This document shows positions 1,472 through 31,578 of a stretch of DNA of 64,000 nucleotides, one piece after another (position 1 is the stretch's first letter; the number at the start of each line of letters is the position of its first letter). Source of the DNA: a virus (taxonomy: Duplodnaviria > Caudoviricetes); the IMG/VR virus record IMGVR_UViG_3300046522_000316, positions 192,001 through 256,000 of that record; one strand, given 5' to 3'. The notes under the pieces are model-generated. The model was not told the DNA's origin, made no database searches, and saw only the letters and a list, made by a program, of their open reading frames with translations. The position numbers and the translations under genes were made by a program.

Positions 1472-3352
1472 ATGGCACTCATTTATGCTGACGATTATCA
1501 GCAGTGGGCGACGGCGGCGAGTGACAATATTCGGGCAGCGGGATTGTATCCGCAATTCTTGGGCCAGAACGTTCCGGGTTATCAGGGCGAAATGCAAGGC
1601 CTCGGAATTTACCAGCCGTCTTACGCGCAAGGGTACGGCGGCGCTAACTCGATTTTGTATTCGCTTTTGTACGACACAACACGTGGCGCATTAATGGCGG
1701 TGCAGCCTCGTTCCCCTGCCGATGGTCAAGCTGCATTGGCCTCGGGCTTGCGCCGGAAATTTGAATACGACGGCGACACGCTTTATTTCGGAACCACGAT
1801 TGAATTCGGTGGCGTTACTCCAATGTACAGCGGCGATTTTCTGATTTTCGGAAATAACCCGGACGGCGTAACGTTCACAGGTTCCGATCAGGTTGGCACC
1901 TACTTGTATGGTGTGGGAATTGATGCGGATGGTTTTTTCACATTCAACGGAATTTCCACAACTGTTCCCGTGTATTACAAACCGGCGACCACGTTGGTTT
2001 ATATCGACGTGGTTTTCACACCAACCACAATGGAACTCTGGATTAACGATGCGAAGGCCGCGACACAATCGCGTCAAAACCTGAAGCTGAAAGAATTCGG
2101 ATTGACTGCCGGGAAATTGGTAAAGGTAACTGCTGCGAATTTCTGTATATGGATTCACAGCGTAATCATTGCCGACAACACGCCGGGATTCGGCCAGCGT
2201 ATCGGGCGCAAGCGTGCAAAGACTGAACAAGTACAAACCACGCCCACAATCGAAACCGGATTAATACCAGTAGCAGGACAAACGGCGTTGGCGATCATCC
2301 GCAAATTCGCCTCGGGGCCGACAAACGAATCCGATGGGAATATGCTCGGCAGCTTGGCGTCACCGTTGCCTTTTGTGCGAAATGATTTCGGTGGTACGCG
2401 CACGGCCACGAAAAAACCGTATGCGACTGCTATGAATATTCAGGTTAAACGTCTATTTCCGTCACCTGACGGGATGGCGGTTCACCCGTATGTGACGATT
2501 GCAGGAACCAAGGTTTACGGGGATAAAGTTTTACCAAGCTCGACATGGAAAATGTTTCACGTGCCGTTTCCAATTGCTGCTGACCAGACGTTTTCCGCTT
2601 TTAACTTCGGTTATGAACACGACTACAAAGACCTCAACAAAGTCTACGCAGTTGATCGACAAAATACCGAAGTATACGGCGACTCTGGTTTGGTTTCCGG
2701 CAATTGGTACAAGGCTACGGATTTGATCGCGTATGACTCCGCACGTTTCACCACTGGCGGGTTCACCGATTACAACAACAAATTCATAGCGCCGCTTTCG
2801 GACACTGCGACACTTCCATACAAAGCCGGGCAGTCGTTTAAATACGGCGAAGGTATTCACCTCGGTGAAGGCGGCGGGCTTTATACGGCGGTTGGTGCGT
2901 TGGCTCCATCCGTGTTTGCGAATCCGTGGACGCTGGATTTTTGGGCTAAAGAAACAGTGGATAACGCAATCACTTCTCTTTGGTTCATGTGTACAGCAAT
3001 CCCTGTCAATTTGAATGACCGTATTTTGATCGGGGTACACGACGTTAGCACCACGAAAATGTCGTTGTGGAATAACACGTCTAACGCACGTTTTATTTCC
3101 ACATGGAACGCCCCGCTTTCCAGCACCGCTTGGCGTCATTGGGCGTTTGTTTTCGACGGTGCAAAAACATCGGTTTATGTTAACGGTGTTTTGGTGGGCA
3201 CACTGGATTACCCTGTCGCGGCTTTCACTTCGCGCCTCGGTATTCAGAACCGCACGTTGCAGACCACCAGCCGCGCAATCATTGAGCGTTATCGTTTGCG
3301 TGCCGGTACTGCGTGGACAGCCAACTTCGATCCGGAAACAATCTACAATTGA
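1472..3352 (+). CDS. Tail structural protein with C-terminal LamG/concanavalin A-like domain
   Basis: WTLDFWAK...WRHWAFVFDGAKTSVYVNGVLVG is a typical LamG pattern; RBS gggga. Confidence 0.7.
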   Translation: MALIYADDYQQWATAASDNIRAAGLYPQFLGQNVPGYQGEMQGLGIYQPSYAQGYGGANSILYSLLYDTTRGALMAVQPRSPADGQAALASGLRRKFEYDGDTLYFGTTIEFGGVTPMYSGDFLIFGNNPDGVTFTGSDQVGTYLYGVGIDADGFFTFNGISTTVPVYYKPATTLVYIDVVFTPTTMELWINDAKAATQSRQNLKLKEFGLTAGKLVKVTAANFCIWIHSVIIADNTPGFGQRIGRKRAKTEQVQTTPTIETGLIPVAGQTALAIIRKFASGPTNESDGNMLGSLASPLPFVRNDFGGTRTATKKPYATAMNIQVKRLFPSPDGMAVHPYVTIAGTKVYGDKVLPSSTWKMFHVPFPIAADQTFSAFNFGYEHDYKDLNKVYAVDRQNTEVYGDSGLVSGNWYKATDLIAYDSARFTTGGFTDYNNKFIAPLSDTATLPYKAGQSFKYGEGIHLGEGGGLYTAVGALAPSVFANPWTLDFWAKETVDNAITSLWFMCTAIPVNLNDRILIGVHDVSTTKMSLWNNTSNARFISTWNAPLSSTAWRHWAFVFDGAKTSVYVNGVLVGTLDYPVAAFTSRLGIQNRTLQTTSRAIIERYRLRAGTAWTANFDPETIYN

Positions 3353-3358
3353 TGCACC

Positions 3359-3389
3359 AAATGCCCTGAGTAAAATCGGGGCATTTTTC
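3359..3389 (+). terminator. Intrinsic terminator
   Basis: atgccctga-gtaaaa-tcggggcat followed by tttt. Confidence 0.7.
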
Positions 3390-3401
3390 TAAGGAGTGGC
3401 T

Positions 3402-5522
3402 ATGAAGTTACTGAATACCATCGTGTTGCCAAATCAATTGGCAGCGCAGGGAATTAACCACGTCGCCATTTATCAGAATGGTGCGGTTTCTACTTACCTG
3501 AAAGACAAAATAAATTCCAAACTCACGGCTACAGGGCCAACGACCGCTGTGCCAAATGCACGCACCGTCAGAATCAGTCCGAGCGGTGAATATATCGGTG
3601 TACAGAGCGACACCAAAACCGTGCGCATTCGTAACGGTGTGCAGGAATCTTTCGACAATAACGTTGGTTCTTTCGGCATTGCGGACACGGGCCATATCGT
3701 AATGATCGCGCTGGCGTCTGGCGCCGTGCAGGTTATTGATTCGTCGGTAACGAACCTGACGGTGGCTGTGACCGATGACGACCGTGTGGTGTGTGCGAAA
3801 GGCCGCTACATGGTTTACAACCGGGCACGAACCATCACGGCCAATTACACCGACCTCGTTTTGACGCCGGTTGCGTCTGCAAAAGAAATCGTTTATGTGA
3901 CGCACGATCACAACGGAAAATTCGTTGTGTTTTATTCTGATAATACCTTCAGCTACGACGGCGCAGCGGCCAAGACATTTAACGCTCCGGCCCAAGGCTT
4001 CCGCGATGTAGGCGATCAGATTCTCTGCACCGATATGAAAAACGATTGGGCGCTAAACCATTCCAAACCGCAGGCATTTCCTGAACTGGTGCGCAAATTT
4101 AAATGGACTGTTCCGGCTGATCAGAACACCGATTTTGCCAGCCTTCGTTTGATGGCGCCGGGTTCTGGATTCACCACTGCCAATTTCGATTTGAAAAATG
4201 GTGTGGTTGTACAGGACGCCACCGACGTAACTTCCGTATCTGATTCGCCTTATGGTGTGACGGGCAAAAGCCTTTCGTTCAATGGCACCACGTCCAACCT
4301 GCGCACAGCTGATAGCGCGAATATCACGTTGGGCGCCGCAGATTTCACAATTGAATTGTTTGTAAAAATCAATTCGGGAACCACATCAATTACGACCCTT
4401 GTGCAAAAAGGCGGCGGGGCAACCATCGCTTGGCCTAGCTTTTTGCTTCAGGCGGTTGTTGCATCAAAAGCATTCTGCTTCGCTGCATCTTTCAACAATA
4501 CCGGCGCAGACGTTGGCACATTTGATGGCCCCGGTGCTTGGGGCGCATTTGAATTCGATGTGTGGACTCACATTGCAATCACGCGGAAAGGGAATACTTG
4601 GCGCTGTTTCCAAGACGGTAAACTGCGTGCGAAATATACCGGCAACGGAACGCTGTTCCCTAACACCGGACGCGGTATTACCATCGGCGGCTCGCGTGGC
4701 ACCAACTACACTTCCGGCGCCCTGTACGGCCAGCTGAAAGGTAATGTCAACGGATTCCAAATTCTGAATTATGCGAAATATACGCATGATTTTTATGCGG
4801 AAACTCTTTCCACAACACCGGCCCTGCCATCGAATGGCGTACCGGGTGCAGGTTCTCCGATTGCTGGTGATACCACGTTGGGTTATTACGGCACCGCGAC
4901 TGGCACCGCACTTATTACGGGCGATGCTTTGGCGACCGCAGTTGGATTGTCGGCGGGCGTTTCTGTCAACTCTGATACTCCGTGGTTTAAGTTCGCATCG
5001 AATGGGAAAATTCTGTTCATTCCGAAACTACCGATCCGTTCGAATATCAGTTGGCCGCAGCTTTATGCAGCCGGTTTGGTTTACGGTTTGAATTCTGGTA
5101 TTGGCCCGTTCCCATTGCCAACCGACGCAACTGTGCAGCAAACAAAACGCGTAACAATTAACGGAAACGTTTACAAAGTTCGTTTGATGACTGGCGGTAA
5201 TGCTGACCCGTATCCGAGCGGTGAATTCAACGTGAGCAACCCGGCAAATGCATTGAATTCCGAATATACGCAATTGGTACAGCGTTGCTGGGCACTCGAT
5301 CCAAACGGTGCGCCGTGGGATAACCTTTCCATGGAAGAAATGGGTATTGATGGCGTTCACATTATGTGGTGCCAAGAATCGCATCCGAACGGCCCATTCA
5401 GCCGCGTACATCGTGGTATTTCTGGCCCGGCTGGATTTGGTACGACTGACGGCAATTACACCGACGTTGGCGGTTATACATTCATGTGGCGCCCGGTATT
5501 GGAATTGGTTGGGCCTGCCTAA
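3402..5522 (+). CDS. Tail fibre/receptor-binding-like protein: LamG domain plus phiKZ gp131-like C-terminal domain
   Basis: RBS aaggag. DFTIELFVK...WTHIAITRKG..FQDGKL (LamG). GYYG...LITGDALATAVGLSAG..NSDTPWFKF..GKILFIPKLPIRSNISW resembles jumbo-phage tail-tip domains. Confidence 0.7.
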   Translation: MKLLNTIVLPNQLAAQGINHVAIYQNGAVSTYLKDKINSKLTATGPTTAVPNARTVRISPSGEYIGVQSDTKTVRIRNGVQESFDNNVGSFGIADTGHIVMIALASGAVQVIDSSVTNLTVAVTDDDRVVCAKGRYMVYNRARTITANYTDLVLTPVASAKEIVYVTHDHNGKFVVFYSDNTFSYDGAAAKTFNAPAQGFRDVGDQILCTDMKNDWALNHSKPQAFPELVRKFKWTVPADQNTDFASLRLMAPGSGFTTANFDLKNGVVVQDATDVTSVSDSPYGVTGKSLSFNGTTSNLRTADSANITLGAADFTIELFVKINSGTTSITTLVQKGGGATIAWPSFLLQAVVASKAFCFAASFNNTGADVGTFDGPGAWGAFEFDVWTHIAITRKGNTWRCFQDGKLRAKYTGNGTLFPNTGRGITIGGSRGTNYTSGALYGQLKGNVNGFQILNYAKYTHDFYAETLSTTPALPSNGVPGAGSPIAGDTTLGYYGTATGTALITGDALATAVGLSAGVSVNSDTPWFKFASNGKILFIPKLPIRSNISWPQLYAAGLVYGLNSGIGPFPLPTDATVQQTKRVTINGNVYKVRLMTGGNADPYPSGEFNVSNPANALNSEYTQLVQRCWALDPNGAPWDNLSMEEMGIDGVHIMWCQESHPNGPFSRVHRGISGPAGFGTTDGNYTDVGGYTFMWRPVLELVGPA

Positions 5523-5554
5523 TCATTAAATGGATTTTAAATAAAGGGGTTCCA

Positions 5555-6316
5555 ATGCGTTTTATTCTAGCCACCGTAATTTATCTATATAGTTCGATGC
5601 TTTGGTGCCAAGAACTGTACGTGCAATCTCAGACGATCACCGATCTTTACGGCTCAGTTTTTCTCGATAAACTGGACGCAAAAAACGTGATATTTCTGGA
5701 ACGGCAAGCGAAACCTCCCGAGGTCAAACACGCCGTAACGCAATACGCCTTGGCGCACAAGTTCGACAAGATAGTGGTACTCGGACAAAAGCAGGATTTG
5801 GAAGGCGATTACTTCCCGATCCTGACGCAATTCGAAGTGCCAGCAATCCTAACCGGATCGCCAGTCTATCTGCTGCAAGGGACGGGCCGTCTCGCGCAAG
5901 AACGAAAGAAAATGTTTGAGAGTTTGAAGCCCGAAGAATTCGAAATCAAAACCGATTACGATCTGCGAAAAGCACTTGTTGCTCTCCAGAAAAAGCCGAA
6001 AGGTTTTATCGTGATCAACGTTTTTACGATGGCGGATTCGTGGGGCGACAAACGCAACTATCAGACAATTGAAGAAACTGTAATCCTGCACAGGACTGGT
6101 CACGTTGAGGTCGGTGTGTGTTACGCCGGATTTAAAACGGCGCTTGCGGTTGGCCCTACAGCCGATCCCATAGACGTAAAAACGGTCTTGGCCTCCGGTA
6201 AATCCGGAAGCTTGTGTGCAAACCTCGACCGTCTGCGTCTACTGGATAGATTGGATCTATATTCGCAGTCGGCAGGGAAATTCTACCGTGTCAATTCTCA
6301 CGCGTTCGACGATTAG
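5555..6316 (+). CDS. Hypothetical exported protein
   Basis: RBS aaagggg; signal-peptide-like N-terminus MRFILATVIYLYSSMLWC. Confidence 0.6.
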   Translation: MRFILATVIYLYSSMLWCQELYVQSQTITDLYGSVFLDKLDAKNVIFLERQAKPPEVKHAVTQYALAHKFDKIVVLGQKQDLEGDYFPILTQFEVPAILTGSPVYLLQGTGRLAQERKKMFESLKPEEFEIKTDYDLRKALVALQKKPKGFIVINVFTMADSWGDKRNYQTIEETVILHRTGHVEVGVCYAGFKTALAVGPTADPIDVKTVLASGKSGSLCANLDRLRLLDRLDLYSQSAGKFYRVNSHAFDD

Positions 6317-6572
6317 CAAAGGCATAATCTTGAGCATCGTGGTTGTACTTGTCTGGACAGTGTTCTCATTTAATTGGAACAGGCCGGGCAAACCCACGGT
6401 GCGAGAGAGTTACGAATGCATTGTAAAAATATGCAGTGATCTTCCGGGGGCTGGGGACGCTTGCTTGGTGCAAAAACCTAAAATAACGAAAATAATAATC
6501 AGCGAATTTGATGGCGCTGTGACGGTGCAATTCACCCCAACCACAGATAGGTGCGCCGATGGGAGCGATTGA
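6288..6572 (+). CDS. Small single-pass membrane protein with Cys-containing periplasmic part
   Basis: GTG start with gcaggga RBS; hydrophobic GIILSIVVVLVWTVF. Confidence 0.55.
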   Translation: MSILTRSTISKGIILSIVVVLVWTVFSFNWNRPGKPTVRESYECIVKICSDLPGAGDACLVQKPKITKIIISEFDGAVTVQFTPTTDRCADGSD

Positions 6573-7041
6573 CGTTCTTTACTCCAGTCCGATCCCGGTA
6601 TCATTGGCGATTGGATTCAATCTGATATTGCTGGCTGTCGGCTGGTTGTTTGTTCTGCCATTGCATGAGGAAGTAAAATCCCTTCGTAAGCGGGCTGAAA
6701 ATTTCGACAACAGCTACATTCAGAGTGTTGATGCAATTAAAAAAATGCAGGACGATTTGGACGAAATTCTTGGTGTGGTAAAACACCCGGACACACAGGC
6801 CTTAACGTCTTTGGCAGTTGTTTGCGATTCTTTAATGTCACAGGTAAATGACATTCGCAACAATTTAGGTAAGGAAGACCCGAGGGAACGTGCCGAGCTT
6901 TTGAATTTGCTTGAATCACTTGAACGTAATTCGGAACGTATTCTGCGCACGGTTTCTGATGTAAGCGATAAACAAAGTCAAGTTACGGGCTTAATGCTCG
7001 GATTAGGCATGCAGCGCGGCAACCCGCCACGCGGCGTTTGA
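6559..7041 (+). CDS. N-anchored coiled-coil membrane protein
   Basis: One TM segment followed by heptad-rich helical sequence. Confidence 0.6.
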   Translation: MGAIDVLYSSPIPVSLAIGFNLILLAVGWLFVLPLHEEVKSLRKRAENFDNSYIQSVDAIKKMQDDLDEILGVVKHPDTQALTSLAVVCDSLMSQVNDIRNNLGKEDPRERAELLNLLESLERNSERILRTVSDVSDKQSQVTGLMLGLGMQRGNPPRGV

Positions 7042-18823: not shown

Positions 18824-18839
18824 TATATTTACAGTTTTT
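18824..18839 (-). promoter_or_regulatory. Recurring AAAAACTGTAAATATA motif (putative phage promoter)
   Basis: Intergenic and oriented with transcription; repeated at 20701, 31555, 38649, 52494, 54412. Confidence 0.6.
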
Positions 18840-20700: not shown

Positions 20701-20716
20701 TATATTTACAGTTTTT
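20701..20716 (-). promoter_or_regulatory. AAAAACTGTAAATATA motif
   Basis: Exact copy; overlaps the K-L-stop end of the upstream gene. Confidence 0.6.
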
Positions 20717-21867: not shown

Positions 21868-22181
21868 TGTTCTGGATTCCTTGCCACGATGCTGATCGTT
21901 TCGCGATTGAGGTGTACCAGACTTTTTTCCAGTACGCCGATTTCGGTGTTCAGTAGGGCCACGCGTTGTTTGGTTTTTTCGACTTTGTTTTTCACGAAAT
22001 CAATCAACCACAACTGCGCTTCACGTTCGGTGGCAAACGACACCATAGGCTTAGACGCAGTGGCCCAACTTGCCCACGCGCCCTGCATGTAATATTGCGG
22101 GATATAAAGCTCGTTGAGTTTGATACCCGGCGCCGGTACGCGACAGAAAACGCGAAACGGAATTTGGTCAGGGCTATTCAT
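21864..22181 (-). CDS. Hypothetical protein
   Basis: ORF track; ATGA coupling. Confidence 0.6.
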   Translation of the reverse strand: MNSPDQIPFRVFCRVPAPGIKLNELYIPQYYMQGAWASWATASKPMVSFATEREAQLWLIDFVKNKVEKTKQRVALLNTEIGVLEKSLVHLNRETISIVARNPEQ

Positions 22182-22393
22182 GGTTTCAAATCCTTGGCCG
22201 CTTCTTTGTAGGACGCCACCGCGCCGTCACGAATGTGCGAAGCCAGAATGTAGAAACCGCATACAACACGTGCCACAAAATCCAACACACGGGATTCACT
22301 TTCCCACGACTGGTCTTCACGCTTATGGTTCACGGCAAACATGACGCCATAAACCAAGAAAACCAGAACTACCAACAGCACTAAATATTTCAT
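22178..22393 (-). CDS. Small membrane protein
   Basis: ggag RBS 9 nt before ATG22393; hydrophobic N-terminus. Confidence 0.6.
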   Translation of the reverse strand: MKYLVLLVVLVFLVYGVMFAVNHKREDQSWESESRVLDFVARVVCGFYILASHIRDGAVASYKEAAKDLKP

Positions 22394-22412
22394 TGTCCAT
22401 TGCTCCAAAGGT

Positions 22413-22430
22413 GCCCACCCGAAGGCAGGC
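22413..22430 (-). other. C(UUCG)G hairpin / possible terminator
   Basis: gcctgcc-ttcg-ggtgggc, intergenic. Confidence 0.6.
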
Positions 22431-22442
22431 CCCTTTTTTCAG

Positions 22443-22697
22443 TTATTGTTCGCCTTTCTCGGCACGGGCTGCATCACGCTTGCGTTTATCCCGTTCGTTG
22501 AGTGCGTTGGCTGCTTGGTGCATGGAATCTTCTATAAATTCCACTACGATCATGATCGCCGCAAACACACCGACCACAAAGTAGAAAATCGGATTCCACC
22601 ATTTGCGATCATCGCCCGTCTGCTCCTTGGATAGGTCGTAGCTAAACCACGACGCGTAACCGATCCACACCAGCAAAATCAGATAGATGAAAAACAT
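22443..22697 (-). CDS. Two-TM membrane protein
   Basis: TAATG-coupled to the ligase gene; two hydrophobic helices. Confidence 0.65.
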   Translation of the reverse strand: MFFIYLILLVWIGYASWFSYDLSKEQTGDDRKWWNPIFYFVVGVFAAIMIVVEFIEDSMHQAANALNERDKRKRDAARAEKGEQ

Positions 22698-24067
22698 TAT
22701 TCGTCTTCCCCTTCGCCGTAATATTCCGGGTTGTCGTTGATCAACACGTGCGGGATAAATCGCTCGTTCTTCCACGACAACGTTGGCGATTCGAATTCAC
22801 GAATGCACATCGTGGCCGCTGTCGATTCACGCATGGAATTGTAATCGGAAGCAACGTCGGGAACCATGAACATTCCGATGATGAAATTGTTCCGGCCTTC
22901 GACTTTGTGCGGTGCGTGGTACGCCTGATAAACGCAGTCGTCGCCTTTGTACGGGCCATCGGTGACGTGAGTTGTTGTACCCTGCGCGTCAAAGATTTCG
23001 ACGTTGCTGCTCATGCGACCAACACGTGGTTTTTTCACGTAAGAAACTTTATCGGTTTCGAATTTACGCTCATGCACGTAGGTTGGAATCACTGGCAAAT
23101 CGCCGTAACGCTCTGCGAACGCTGCGTCGTTTTCCAGCAGACGCCAGATGTAGGCCCAAATACCTTTGTTGCTGGTAAACCAACGCCACGCCGGTTCGAG
23201 CATGGTGGTATAGGACGCCCAGTTCTGCCATTCCTTGTACGCCTGCGGGAATGCCTCGACCATTTCTTCCCACGGCACCAACGCGAAAATAACCGTCAGC
23301 GGATTTTCACCGATGTGGAACGGGTTGGTTTTGTTGTTGAAGTCGTAGTCGATTTCCGTAACGTCTGCGAAAAGGCACACGTTGTTTTCGCCAAGAATTT
23401 GCGCGATAACTTCGGAGGTCGCAGTGTCCTCGAACGAATTGCTTTCGTGAATCACGGCAGCGTTGCCCGGAATCTCGCCCATGTCGCCAATCATGGTTTG
23501 CAGCAGCGGGTAAAAGCTATTCAGCTGCAATTCGTTGTCGCCGGTTACGGTTTCGCAAACCTGATTCTGGAACGAAACAGATTCGAAAAGCATGGTCGGC
23601 GTGTCGCCGTTGAATTCGTAGATCCCGGTCACTTCCTCGGTCACAGGATCAAACGCGGCGTCAAAGCGACCGTAGATCGCCTGACGGGCAGACCCATGGT
23701 CACGATAGGAGAACTTCGCGTAGTCGATGAAATACGGATGTTTGCGGAGGAAATCACAGCCCATAAAATACATGAGCGTTTCATTCGATTCGTTGAAGAG
23801 TTTCCCGACCGCCTCAACCAGCATTGCGTATGCGCGTTCGAAAGTGGTTTCGATTTTCGCGCAGGAACTCAGATGCAGATTGTAAACCGGCATGTGGGAA
23901 CTGTGTTCGAGGGGGAACGCAAAATATTCTTTTACGTCCGAGTAGAATTCCGCATCTGCTTCGGATTCCGGTTTCGGCATTTCGCGGTAGAAGGCTTGAG
24001 TCCACGGCAATTCCTCGACCATCAATTTGTTCAGGTCGAAGCCGATATTGTGATACGTGCAATGCAT
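22697..24067 (-). CDS. Glutathionylspermidine synthetase-like ATP-grasp ligase (YgiC/YjfC family)
   Basis: YGRFD...EFNGDTPT..FES, EPAW...SNKG, YVKKP..GR..SNV motifs. Confidence 0.9.
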   Translation of the reverse strand: MHCTYHNIGFDLNKLMVEELPWTQAFYREMPKPESEADAEFYSDVKEYFAFPLEHSSHMPVYNLHLSSCAKIETTFERAYAMLVEAVGKLFNESNETLMYFMGCDFLRKHPYFIDYAKFSYRDHGSARQAIYGRFDAAFDPVTEEVTGIYEFNGDTPTMLFESVSFQNQVCETVTGDNELQLNSFYPLLQTMIGDMGEIPGNAAVIHESNSFEDTATSEVIAQILGENNVCLFADVTEIDYDFNNKTNPFHIGENPLTVIFALVPWEEMVEAFPQAYKEWQNWASYTTMLEPAWRWFTSNKGIWAYIWRLLENDAAFAERYGDLPVIPTYVHERKFETDKVSYVKKPRVGRMSSNVEIFDAQGTTTHVTDGPYKGDDCVYQAYHAPHKVEGRNNFIIGMFMVPDVASDYNSMRESTAATMCIREFESPTLSWKNERFIPHVLINDNPEYYGEGEDE

Positions 24068-24097
24068 GAATAACTTCCTTGGAAAAATGCGAAAAGA

Positions 24098-24760
24098 TTA
24101 CGAGCCAGAACCGTGGGATGCTGCACGGGCACCGCCACCACCGGACATTACGCCAGACGCACGCGATGCAGCAGCCGCTTTATACGTGGCCGGGGCACTC
24201 GACGGGCTTGCACGCCATTGCGAAACGCGGTTGTTCATGTTCGAACGATACGACGGGCTAGACGTGACGGCAGCGCGGTTATTATTCATCAGCATCGACG
24301 TGTAGGCCGACGATCCGCTGTTACGGCATTTACGGCGATCTTGTTCGTTGCATTGCGTAGATTGCAACGGCTGGTGTTGCTGCTGATATTGCTGCATGCC
24401 GCCGTTCTGGTTCATCATTTTCGCCAACGCGTAACCACCGATGGCAGCAGCGCCAGCACCGGCCACCAACGGCCACACGGAATCGCTGCTTTGGCCGTTC
24501 GCTTCTTCACGCACAATATGCAATTGTTTTTCGCCGTTTGCACCGACGCCGTAATACGCATCTTTTACAGACGGATCTTTCGTTTGCAATTCCTTCACGG
24601 TTGCTTGCAAATCTTTTTCGTCTTCTGCGAGTTGTGCGCGGGTTGCCTGACCAGCCTCTTCGTCAACGTAGGCCTGTTCTTCGGCGTAGTCCGGGCTATC
24701 GTCACAGCCAGCGAGAATTACCAAACTTGCTGCTGCCAAAGCAATGACTTTTTTGTTCAC
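24098..24760 (-). CDS. Lipoprotein with Gly/Ser/Arg-rich tail (YgiB/DUF1190-like)
   Basis: GTG start; NKKVIALAAASLVILAGC lipobox; tail SRASGVMSGGGGARAASHGSGS; directly upstream of the ligase. Confidence 0.75.
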   Translation of the reverse strand: MNKKVIALAAASLVILAGCDDSPDYAEEQAYVDEEAGQATRAQLAEDEKDLQATVKELQTKDPSVKDAYYGVGANGEKQLHIVREEANGQSSDSVWPLVAGAGAAAIGGYALAKMMNQNGGMQQYQQQHQPLQSTQCNEQDRRKCRNSGSSAYTSMLMNNNRAAVTSSPSYRSNMNNRVSQWRASPSSAPATYKAAAASRASGVMSGGGGARAASHGSGS

Positions 24761-24816
24761 TTCATTTGTTTCCTTAATGGGGGTGATGTGGGCCAGTCGT
24801 AACAACCTGACCCCTG

Positions 24817-24828
24817 ATATTTACATTA
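24817..24828 (-). promoter_or_regulatory. Variant motif TAATGTAAATAT followed by a hairpin leader
   Basis: TGTAAATAT core; downstream aggggtcaggttg resembles the 38.6-kb leader. Confidence 0.5.
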
Positions 24829-31386: not shown

Positions 31387-31578
31387 TTACGGTTCCTGCT
31401 GCCAATCGGCTTCGATCAGCTGCACTTTGAAGTTGCGCGCCAGTATTCGGCTTTCCGCCAAGGTGAATTGTCGGGCGCGTAGTCTGCTTTTGCATGTGTA
31501 AACCTTGTCTTCGGTAATCTTGAAAATGTAGGAGCCTTCTGAAAGCCTCGCTACATATTTACAGTTTTTGTTGTCCAT
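31387..31578 (-). CDS. Small hypothetical protein
   Basis: 63 aa; start uncertain because the recurring motif lies in its first codons. Confidence 0.45.
   Translation of the reverse strand: MDNKNCKYVARLSEGSYIFKITEDKVYTCKSRLRARQFTLAESRILARNFKVQLIEADWQQEP
31555..31569 (-). promoter_or_regulatory. AAAAACTGTAAATAT motif
   Basis: Overlaps the K-L-stop end of 31559-31837. Confidence 0.55.

Follow-up and report, generated by a model that had tools for sequence, protein, structure and literature searches.

Our analysis showed that the window, the whole stretch of 64,000 nucleotides (64 kb) of phage DNA analysed here, carries a dispensable two-gene accessory cassette, which consists of a lipoprotein gene and a ligase gene and is a phage-borne copy of the YgiB-YgiC module of bacteria. 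Its source, found in a rhizosphere metagenome, is a jumbo phage resembling Lu11 and HRDY3, a giant soil phage of the Pseudomonas type. The best explanation overall is a two-gene envelope/polyamine cassette, to which we give a probability of about 0.7.

Layout and conservation of the cassette

The following features were assigned to the locus:

24817..24825, minus strand: promoter-type motif TGTAAATAT, with four exact copies in the window and a match to a putative Lu11 promoter
24098..24760, minus strand: predicted lipoprotein of 220 aa with a lipobox, matching PHROG 13808, divergent DUF1190 (YgiB/YjfM)-like
22697..24067, minus strand: predicted YgiC/YjfC-type ATP-grasp acid-amine ligase of 456 aa, assigned by PF03738, PHROG 6215 and fold
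22443..22697, minus strand: two-TM protein of 84 aa, a backbone neighbour with a TAATG overlap with the ligase stop
22407..22435, minus strand: GC-rich, UUCG-looped hairpin closing the unit on its 3′ side, identified by folding energy and z
about 22698-24825, minus strand: two-gene cassette (lipoprotein, ligase and promoter motif)

The lipoprotein, ligase and two-TM ORFs are co-oriented on the minus strand, and their coordinates agreed with those of the preliminary description. A 71-aa gene begins 14 nt past the UUCG hairpin (ATG at 22393). The lipoprotein gene was found immediately upstream of the ligase gene and on the same strand in all 31 phage loci (31/31), phiPMW and PhiW-14 included, with ligase identity down to 32%. 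The expected co-conservation of the two genes was therefore borne out, and they are inherited together as a conserved unit. Both families occur in identical order in the Pseudomonas phages Lu11 (gp278/gp277) and HRDY3 with a ligase identity of 65%, in phiPMW (gp104/gp102; 37%), and in Delftia phage PhiW-14 (gp090/gp092; 32%); in phiPMW and PhiW-14, a tiny TM ORF separates the lipoprotein and ligase genes. In the more distant Aeromonas phage 25 and Achromobacter phage Motura, the ligase is paired with Cys-rich, GG-ended DUF1190-type lipoproteins. A homospermidine synthase gene adjoins the pair in Motura, which ties the module to polyamines.

Two relatives, L042 and L044, were collinear with the window but lacked exactly the lipoprotein and ligase genes, while L043 had both of them. 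Because these collinear genomes have no pair while L043 does, the cassette is read as dispensable.

The DNA of PhiW-14 has putrescinylated thymine. This phage bears a homologous lipoprotein-ligase pair, and by analogy the cassette might serve a polyamine-type hypermodification of DNA. We consider this extremely improbable, since the constant coupling to a secreted lipoprotein indicates the envelope and not DNA, many unrelated phages, as well as bacteria, also have the pair, and close relatives of this phage live without it.

The locus had been described as an operon of three genes. Of this description, the coordinates, the overlap of the ligase stop with the start of the 84-aa ORF as TAATG, and the two hydrophobic segments of the encoded protein all stood, but the inclusion of the TM gene in the unit did not, because L042 and L044 retain it in the same backbone position without the lipoprotein and ligase genes. 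For this gene the refuting outcome named in the preliminary description, an absence of co-conservation, was thus observed. The 84-aa protein neighbours the cassette as part of the conserved genome backbone and is not a component of it, and its gene is translationally coupled to the ligase gene through the cassette insertion. Its eight homologues were all from close relatives. It showed no match to DUF350 (YjfL), only weak sub-threshold matches to other families (e.g. DUF378, E 0.0099), an E value of 0.45 against E. coli YjfL in BLASTP, and no resemblance to the phiPMW and PhiW-14 small TM ORFs.

Quite improbable, then, is a reading in which the two-TM protein is a functional part of the operon, as an anchor, an exporter, or a YjfL-like partner. 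The persistence of its gene in L042 and L044 argues against it, as do the lack of detectable similarity to YjfL or among the TM ORFs of different clades and the many clades in which the pair occurs without a TM gene and with a hairpin directly 3′ of the ligase gene. The points in its favour are the TAATG overlap itself, the small TM ORF overlapping the ligase stop in the Lu11-like clade, the tiny TM ORF between the two genes of phiPMW and PhiW-14, and the membership of YjfL in the bacterial yjf operons.

The cassette has its own phage promoter motif, a putative promoter. On the minus strand of the window, TGTAAATAT was observed four times against 0.28 expected, and the copy at 24817 aligns with an annotated 'putative middle/late promoter' of Lu11, with the extended consensus AAAAACTGTAAATATA; the promoter-like motif proposed at this position was thus confirmed. 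A 367-aa gene upstream ends immediately before it, and the lipoprotein start follows at a distance of 56 nt; in Lu11 the motif is placed one gene further upstream. The sigma-70-type match at this site (9/12) was not above chance, and generic scans for sigma-70 promoters and terminators gave results not above shuffle expectation. A hairpin leader had also been proposed before the lipoprotein gene; its folding does not exceed that of shuffled sequence (z 0.06), and this proposal was not upheld.

The UUCG hairpin that had been noticed after the two-TM gene was supported by its folding energy (−18.4 kcal/mol, z −2.55). Its U tail is weak; termination and mRNA stabilisation are both possible roles. 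Hairpins with stems of different sequence close the module at the equivalent position in HRDY3, Lu11, L016, and L020, and in L008 and L009 a hairpin lies directly 3′ of the ligase gene. In other phages the pair is flanked by hairpins or promoters.

The ligase and its bacterial relatives

The ligase matched Pfam PF03738 (GSP_synth) at E 9.8e-45 (153.8 bits, cut-off 29.3) and PHROG 6215 at E 6e-104. Its best sequence matches in the PDB were YgiC (7uk8, 1.3e-14) and YjfC (7uk6, 3e-12), followed by trypanothione synthetase (1e-7). Foldseek with the AF2 model (pLDDT 89.2) matched YjfC, GspS, and YgiC at E values of 2e-24 to 4e-19, YjfC being the top hit (E 2e-24, TM 0.82 by target). Residues R134, D136, E151, and N153 of the ligase align with R316, D318, E330, and N332 of GspS, and K301, K346, R351, Q381, and R423 with K498, K533, R538, Q568, and R598; Q568 apart, these GspS positions define the conserved catalytic residues of the family. 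The catalytic residues are invariant in 26 phage ligases and also in YgiC, YjfC, and GspS. The claim of an ATP-grasp ligase with intact motifs was therefore well founded.

The identity of the ligase to YgiC and YjfC was 24% and 23%, respectively, as against 18% to GspS. In the loop past the E-x-N motif, the phage enzymes share D-T-P-T with YgiC and YjfC, whereas GspS has D-S-A-S-C. E. coli Gss (PDB 2IO7-2IOB) and trypanothione synthetase share with the phage ligase the fold of ATP-grasp synthetases and the residues for Mg, ATP, and acyl phosphate. Unlike Gss, to which its identity is 18%, the phage ligase has the YgiC-type loop past E-x-N and no CHAP amidase domain: no second Pfam domain was found in it, and against the bifunctional Gss model NF007801 it scored 31.7 bits with a cut-off of 882, the match being confined to the synthetase part (ligase residues 289-400, profile positions 486-586). 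This agrees with the earlier view of a YgiC-type enzyme without the Gsp amidase domain. The protein is a predicted cytoplasmic member of the YgiC/YjfC branch of the glutathionylspermidine-synthetase family. Because its identity to YgiC and YjfC is only about 23% and the phage ligases have about 60 extra N-terminal residues and insertions relative to them, its substrate specificity may differ from theirs.

In the passages of PMC11762307 and PMC12568646 that cite Pederick 2023, YgiC and YjfC are reported as peptide-spermidine ligases, and RefSeq annotates E. coli ygiC and yjfC as 'peptide--spermidine ligase'. The passages of PMC11762307 and PMC12506659 that cite Sui 2012 and Pederick 2023 report that they do not make Gsp. 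By analogy with these enzymes, the phage ligase would probably join polyamines to peptides, with glutathionylspermidine not being its product. The reading found in databases is that of a plain glutathionylspermidine synthetase, buffering thiols or polyamines independently of its neighbours. Its basis is the naming of the families in Pfam and PHROG, together with the annotations in Lu11, HRDY3, phiPMW, and PhiW-14, and the catalytic core is indeed common to the phage ligase and GspS. Nevertheless it is improbable, for the sequence is nearer to YgiC and YjfC, which those passages describe as non-Gsp-makers, the D-T-P-T loop is theirs and not that of GspS, the amidase domain is missing, and the obligatory pairing with a lipoprotein is left unexplained.

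Two E. coli pairs are likened to the phage cassette, YgiB-YgiC (tolC-ygiBC operon; YgiC PDB 7UK8/7UKA) and YjfM-YjfC (yjfIJKLMC operon; YjfC PDB 7UK6/7UK7), each of which is made of a DUF1190 lipoprotein and a peptide-spermidine ligase. In the E. coli and phage pairs alike, the lipoprotein gene is followed by the ligase gene in tight linkage, and the ligases agree in fold, in catalytic residues, and in having no amidase domain. That the phage genes are the counterpart of the bacterial ygiB-ygiC and yjfM-yjfC pairs, as had been supposed, was supported by the same families in the same gene order. The supposed link of the bacterial ygiB-ygiC/yjfC pair to PspA-type envelope-stress operons is documented in the literature (PMC11237479). 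Unlike the E. coli operons, the phage pair has no PspA, YjfK, YjfL, or TolC genes nearby, and a tblastn search for Band-7, PspA/YjfJ, YjfI, YjfK, YjfL, and homospermidine synthase found none of them in the 64-kb window. It further differs in being a dispensable cassette under a phage promoter motif, with a ligase identity of about 23%. None of the four proteins matched a PADLOC defence family.

The suggestion of an uncharacterised new multi-gene system was not supported. The ligase is already annotated as glutathionylspermidine synthase in the records of Lu11, HRDY3, phiPMW, and PhiW-14, where the lipoprotein is merely a 'hypothetical protein'; the phiPMW paper terms this synthase gene unusual and of unclear function (PMC5587285), and a YgiB-like lipoprotein has been noted in phage Moon (PMC4319498).

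The lipoprotein family

At its N-terminus the lipoprotein bears KK and a hydrophobic core, followed by the lipobox L-A-G-C, which fits the pattern [LVI][ASTVI][GAS]C and has Asp at +2. The lipobox Cys is invariant across 31 close homologues and nearly invariant across the phage family of 123 members (clusters at 50% identity). The protein is thus predicted to be exported and lipid-anchored. Its start is likely the GTG at 24760, 9 nt past AAGGAA. The longer alternative from a TTG at 24805 is less likely, because the relatives begin with MNKK or VNKK. An acidic N-terminal helix and a three-stranded sheet are followed by a Gly/Ala-rich hydrophobic segment (about residues 96-116) and then by a basic Ser/Asn/Arg-rich half with a flexible Gly/Ser end. 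The C-terminal part is rich in Ser, Gly, Arg, and Asn, which together with the LAGC signal peptide agrees with the lipoprotein with a Gly/Ser/Arg-rich tail of the preliminary description.

The protein matched PHROG 13808 at E 5e-41. No match to Pfam PF06693 (DUF1190) was found for the window lipoprotein at E up to 0.1, or for those of HRDY3, Lu11, phiPMW, and PhiW-14 at E up to 10. Among the 123 family representatives, 16 matched PF06693 at E up to 0.01, and one alone (P0068) passed its gathering score, with 25.8 bits against a cut-off of 22; this protein also fits the phage-family profile (E 1.3e-29). By hhalign, the phage family and a small DUF1190 profile were collinear over 182 columns (probability 91%, E 9e-7). 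An earlier comparison with a two-sequence YgiB/YjfM alignment had aligned 18 columns, after which a slightly more diverse DUF1190 alignment was used; a search with E. coli YgiB returned near-identical enterobacterial proteins that added little diversity. Through the intermediate family members and the profile comparison, the family is assigned as a divergent DUF1190 (YgiB/YjfM) lineage, in a protein whose C-terminal half is compositionally biased.

In layout, YgiB and YjfM agree with the phage lipoprotein: the lipobox and an ectodomain are followed by a hydrophobic segment of the type S-x-S-x-W-P...G, then by a basic half of low complexity, and the C-terminus consists of small residues. The phage protein differs from them in having the helix and three-stranded sheet instead of a Cys-rich N-terminal part. 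Its AF2 model (pLDDT 84.7, pTM 0.74) packs the N- and C-terminal halves together. With this model, Foldseek matched nothing in the PDB at E up to 0.001; VIA-align reached a Z of 4.3 at best. The N-terminal helix and sheet bear a weak PepSY-like resemblance, and fold novelty does not follow.

The features of this family allow a sharper form of the envelope/polyamine explanation, sharper because it names the carboxylate substrate. The lipoprotein would be bitopic: a single Gly-rich TM helix would separate an acidic, lipid-anchored ectodomain from a basic tail in the cytoplasm, and the ligase would amidate the free C-terminal Gly-Gly or Gly-Ser carboxylate of this tail with a polyamine. In the 110 lipobox-bearing members, the part before the hydrophobic segment was always net negative (mean −9.5), and in 97% of them the part past it was net positive (mean +10.6). 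The sequence ended in GG in 62 of these members, in GS in 18, and in RR in 12, and the lipid-modified Cys was followed by Asp or Glu in 68. YgiB, YjfM, and the proteins of Aeromonas phage 25 and Motura are likewise GG-ended, and a free carboxylate is what ATP-grasp ligases require. However, the hydrophobic segment is Gly/Ala-rich and would make a weak TM helix (Kyte-Doolittle mean of 1.33 across 17 residues), the AF2 prediction is one compact model (pTM 0.74) without a continuous helix, in which the acidic half may do no more than pair with the basic one, and PMC11762307 calls E. coli YgiB a predicted outer-membrane lipoprotein. When the ligase was modelled in complex with residues 117-220 of the lipoprotein, the score was 0.29 (mark 0.32), which weighs in neither direction on binding. 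We put this sharper form forward only tentatively.

Proposed function and significance

Under the best explanation, that of the two-gene envelope/polyamine cassette, the ligase would, judging from its homologues, use ATP to activate a peptide or protein C-terminal carboxylate as an acyl phosphate, which would then be amidated with a polyamine such as spermidine or putrescine. The strict co-occurrence of the pair in phages and bacteria suggests that the lipoprotein works with the ligase at the cell envelope. It might receive or bind the conjugate, or the carboxylate substrate might be its own conserved Gly-Gly/Gly-Ser C-terminus. The phage may express the pair from its own promoter motif and so adjust the envelope or polyamine state of the host in infection. 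Several observations count against this explanation. The predicted locations, cytoplasmic for the ligase and exported for the lipoprotein, leave the meeting of the two to be explained; the identity to YgiC and YjfC is low, with extra residues and insertions in the phage enzymes; the DUF1190 link was made via intermediates and profiles in a compositionally biased protein; and the central hydrophobic segment of the lipoprotein is weak as a TM helix, with the two halves packed together in the AF2 model.

The three-gene reading is corrected here to a two-gene unit, and no new kind of system is revealed. What is added is that the lipoprotein-ligase pairing is absolute in the loci examined and that the free C-terminus of the lipoprotein is conserved. 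PHROG 13808, a large 'hypothetical' family of phage lipoproteins, is now placed as a divergent DUF1190 branch. The YgiB-YgiC/YjfM-YjfC module is widespread in bacteria, where its physiological substrate and role are still unknown. The phage version is stripped to two genes, without PspA, TolC, or YjfL context, and natural relatives with and without the cassette on one backbone could ease functional testing. It is possible, though doubtful, that DUF1190-type proteins, the phage family included, are the natural substrates of their partner ligases through a C-terminal polyamine cap. If true, this would be an undescribed protein C-terminal polyamination, borrowed by phages to alter how the host inner membrane is charged or behaves during infection.

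Locus layout and the ligase

Analysis of the window confirmed the three genes named in the preliminary description: three ORFs are present between 22443 and 24825, all on the minus strand.

24098-24760, minus: ORF 1, lipoprotein, with a basic n-region, a hydrophobic core, the lipobox L-A-G-C and Asp at +2
22697-24067, minus: ORF 2, ligase of 456 aa, 30 nt after ORF 1
22443-22697, minus: ORF 3, 84 aa with two hydrophobic segments, its start overlapping the ORF 2 stop as TAATG
22407-22435, minus: GC-rich hairpin with a UUCG loop (-18.4 kcal/mol, z -2.55)

The GTG at 24760 is the most plausible start of ORF 1; AAGGAA lies 9 nt before it, and homologues start with MNKK or VNKK. Two jumbo Pseudomonas phages, HRDY3 (314 kb) and Lu11 (281 kb), are the nearest relatives on record: part of the region is 72% identical to them at the DNA level, and ligase identity is 65%. 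The stretch was also found in metagenomes from rhizosphere and soil.

ORF 2 matched Pfam GSP_synth (E 9.8e-45) and PHROG 6215 (E 6e-104). Among solved structures, its top sequence matches were the E. coli ligases YgiC (1.3e-14) and YjfC (3e-12), and trypanothione synthetase matched more weakly (1e-7). An AF2 model made from 26 phage homologues (pLDDT 89.2, pTM 0.90) had YjfC (E 2e-24, TM 0.82 by target), the synthetase half of GspS and YgiC as its best structural matches. ORF 2 is 24% identical to YgiC, 23% to YjfC and 18% to GspS in sequence. When four phage ligases were aligned with these three enzymes, 20 columns were invariant, including the equivalents of GspS R316, D318, E330, N332, K498, K533, R538 and R598. 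The bifunctional Gss model scored only 31.7 bits against a cut-off of 882 bits, and the amidase domain is absent from ORF 2. The description of this gene as a YgiC-type ATP-grasp ligase with intact motifs and no Gsp amidase thus holds. Following the E-x-N motif, the loop sequence is D-T-P-T, shared with YgiC and YjfC, whereas GspS has D-S-A-S-C. In the cited passages of PMC11762307, PMC12506659 and PMC12568646, which draw on Sui 2012 and Pederick 2023, YgiC and YjfC reportedly do not synthesize glutathionylspermidine and ligate spermidine to peptides. The phage ligase would likewise join a polyamine to a peptide or protein carboxylate as an amide.

This gene has already been annotated in Lu11, HRDY3, phiPMW and PhiW-14; the phiPMW paper called it unusual and its function unclear. 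A YgiB-like lipoprotein was previously noted in phage Moon.

The lipoprotein and its DUF1190 lineage

The window lipoprotein belongs to PHROG 13808, and neither it nor its HRDY3, Lu11, phiPMW and PhiW-14 counterparts matched Pfam DUF1190 directly. A profile built from 31 close homologues and searched against 1.84 billion proteins recovered 123 clusters at 50% identity, and 16 of the 123 representatives matched DUF1190. One of them, P0068, is encoded directly 5′ of a GSP_synth gene on a phage contig and scored above the DUF1190 gathering threshold (25.8 bits vs 22) while matching the phage profile with E 1.3e-29. Alignment of the phage family with a small DUF1190 alignment by hhalign gave a probability of 91% (E 9e-7), the two being collinear all the way from signal peptide to C-terminus. 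Both groups have a lipobox, an S-x-S-x-W-P...G hydrophobic segment, a basic low-complexity half and a small-residue C-terminus. In bacterial DUF1190 the N-terminal part is Cys-rich and has been termed 'metal-chelating' (PMC11237479); the phage proteins have a long acidic helix and a three-stranded sheet in its place. By these profile comparisons, the 'hypothetical' lipoproteins of PHROG 13808 appear to be a divergent DUF1190 branch, a modest new assignment.

The AF2 model of the lipoprotein was unexpectedly confident (pLDDT 84.7, pTM 0.74), being uncertain only in the lipobox region, residues 98-108 and the last 20 residues. Residues 25-200 formed a compact, confident model although the sequence is low-complexity by eye. 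No matching fold was found among the solved structures searched; the N-terminal part is weakly PepSY-like. Because the model is confident and compact while resembling no solved structure, the DUF1190-type C-terminal half may fold into a genuine domain rather than form a disordered tail.

The lipoprotein could be bitopic, with a cytoplasmic tail serving as a possible ligase substrate. The region before the hydrophobic segment is acidic in all of the 110 family members analysed (mean net charge -9.5), that after it is basic in 97% of them (mean +10.6), and the C-terminus is GG in 62, GS in 18 and RR in 12. But the segment is Gly/Ala-rich and weakly hydrophobic, and the single AF2 model is compact and would also allow plain pairing between the acidic and basic halves. 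We consider it unlikely that the ligase modifies this tail. The lipoprotein, which carries an export signal, would act at the envelope as the functional partner of the ligase, which is predicted to be cytoplasmic.

Pairing and the insertion spot

A lipoprotein-family gene lies directly upstream of the ligase gene on the same strand in 31/31 loci (26 from viral contigs scanned with the ligase alignment, four metagenomic loci and the window), with ligase identity ranging from 74% down to about 32%. The proposed linkage of the two genes is therefore upheld, and its strictness, kept at every locus examined, is a modest new observation. More distant phage ligases show the same pairing, but with classical DUF1190 proteins. 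The partners in Aeromonas phage 25 (ORF085c) and Achromobacter phage Motura (gp274) are Cys-rich and GG-ended.

In Motura (L040, NC_049849.1, 527-3352), a homospermidine synthase gene adjoins gp274, directly 5′ of the genes for this short DUF1190-like lipoprotein and the GspS-like ligase; this would be a three-gene phage polyamine module. A Band-7/SPFH gene lies one to a few genes 5′ of the pair in the T4-like Aeromonas phage 25 (L039, 158-1081) and in a 256-kb metagenomic phage contig (L009, 382-1848), recalling the Band-7 variants of bacterial PspA/ATP-grasp operons (PMC11237479). Bacterial ygiB/yjf modules occur in an envelope-stress context, ygiB being Cpx-regulated (bioRxiv 10.1101/2022.08.05.503015), and yjf-type operons combine PspA, a YgiC/YjfC-type ligase and DUF1190 (PMC11237479). 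None of the bacterial yjf-type partner genes was found in the 64-kb window.

ORF 3 (TM84) does not share this pattern. Its family has 8 members only, all from close relatives, and comparable small TM ORFs that overlap the end of the ligase gene are confined to the Lu11-like clade. In phiPMW and PhiW-14 a tiny, unrelated TM ORF separates the lipoprotein gene from the ligase gene, and the other clades examined have no small TM ORF at the pair. L042, a locus from a 187-kb contig, is collinear with the window (46-94% identity) in the order Arc-domain gene, 167-aa gene, 367-aa gene, TM84, TM71, 105, 110, 280 and Nudix; both lipoprotein and ligase are missing from the collinear position, where the stop of the 367-aa homologue lies 3 nt before the TM84 homologue ATG. 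The claimed three-gene operon is contradicted by these comparisons, and exclusion of the membrane protein from the unit is new here, if modest.

L044 also lacks the pair, while L043 carries it. The pair is therefore a dispensable two-gene indel whose site is variable within a conserved backbone, and the TAATG coupling of ligase and ORF 3 is a by-product of the insertion position. That relatives both carrying and lacking the cassette occur in nature is again a modest novelty. At the insertion spot L044 has an unrelated 136-aa gene of no Pfam family (3050-3460), so cassette exchange may have a hot spot where the 367-aa gene meets the small TM gene.

The gene that follows ORF 3 in the window encodes a 71-aa protein (22178-22393, minus), which is hydrophobic in an N-terminal segment and lacks a lipobox Cys. 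In the same place Lu11 encodes a lipoprotein that is annotated as a Cor superinfection exclusion protein (L002, 5655-5969) and HRDY3 a small lipoprotein (L001, 4372-4623). None of the three matched Pfam.

Regulatory signals

The 9-mer TGTAAATAT at 24817-24825 has four minus-strand copies in the window against 0.28 expected and is the core of a Lu11 sequence annotated as a putative middle/late promoter.

18825-18833, minus: promoter-type motif, extended consensus AAAAACTGTAAATATA(A/C)AG
20702-20710, minus: same motif
24817-24825, minus: same motif
31555-31563, minus: same motif

In the window the motif stands at the cassette's 5′ boundary; in Lu11 it is found one gene farther 5′. The Nudix hydrolase gene is preceded by one of the copies, likewise in Lu11. 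The promoter-like motif proposed earlier is thus supported but its hairpin leader is not, the fold upstream of the lipoprotein gene being not significant; a generic sigma-70 match there did not exceed chance.

The UUCG hairpin proposed at the 3′ end was recovered at 22407-22435. Its position is conserved with different stems in HRDY3, Lu11, L016 and L020, and in L008 and L009 a hairpin directly follows the ligase. Since the window hairpin has no strong U tail, it may either terminate transcription or stabilise the mRNA. L008, an unusually long JGI contig (876,603 bp), carries the pair divergent from a Nudix gene block (4850-7000), with a near-consensus sigma-70 promoter 5′ of the pair and a strong terminator directly 3′ of the ligase. 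Judged from their sequences, these putative signals are consistent with an accessory (moron-like) cassette that is expressed on its own.
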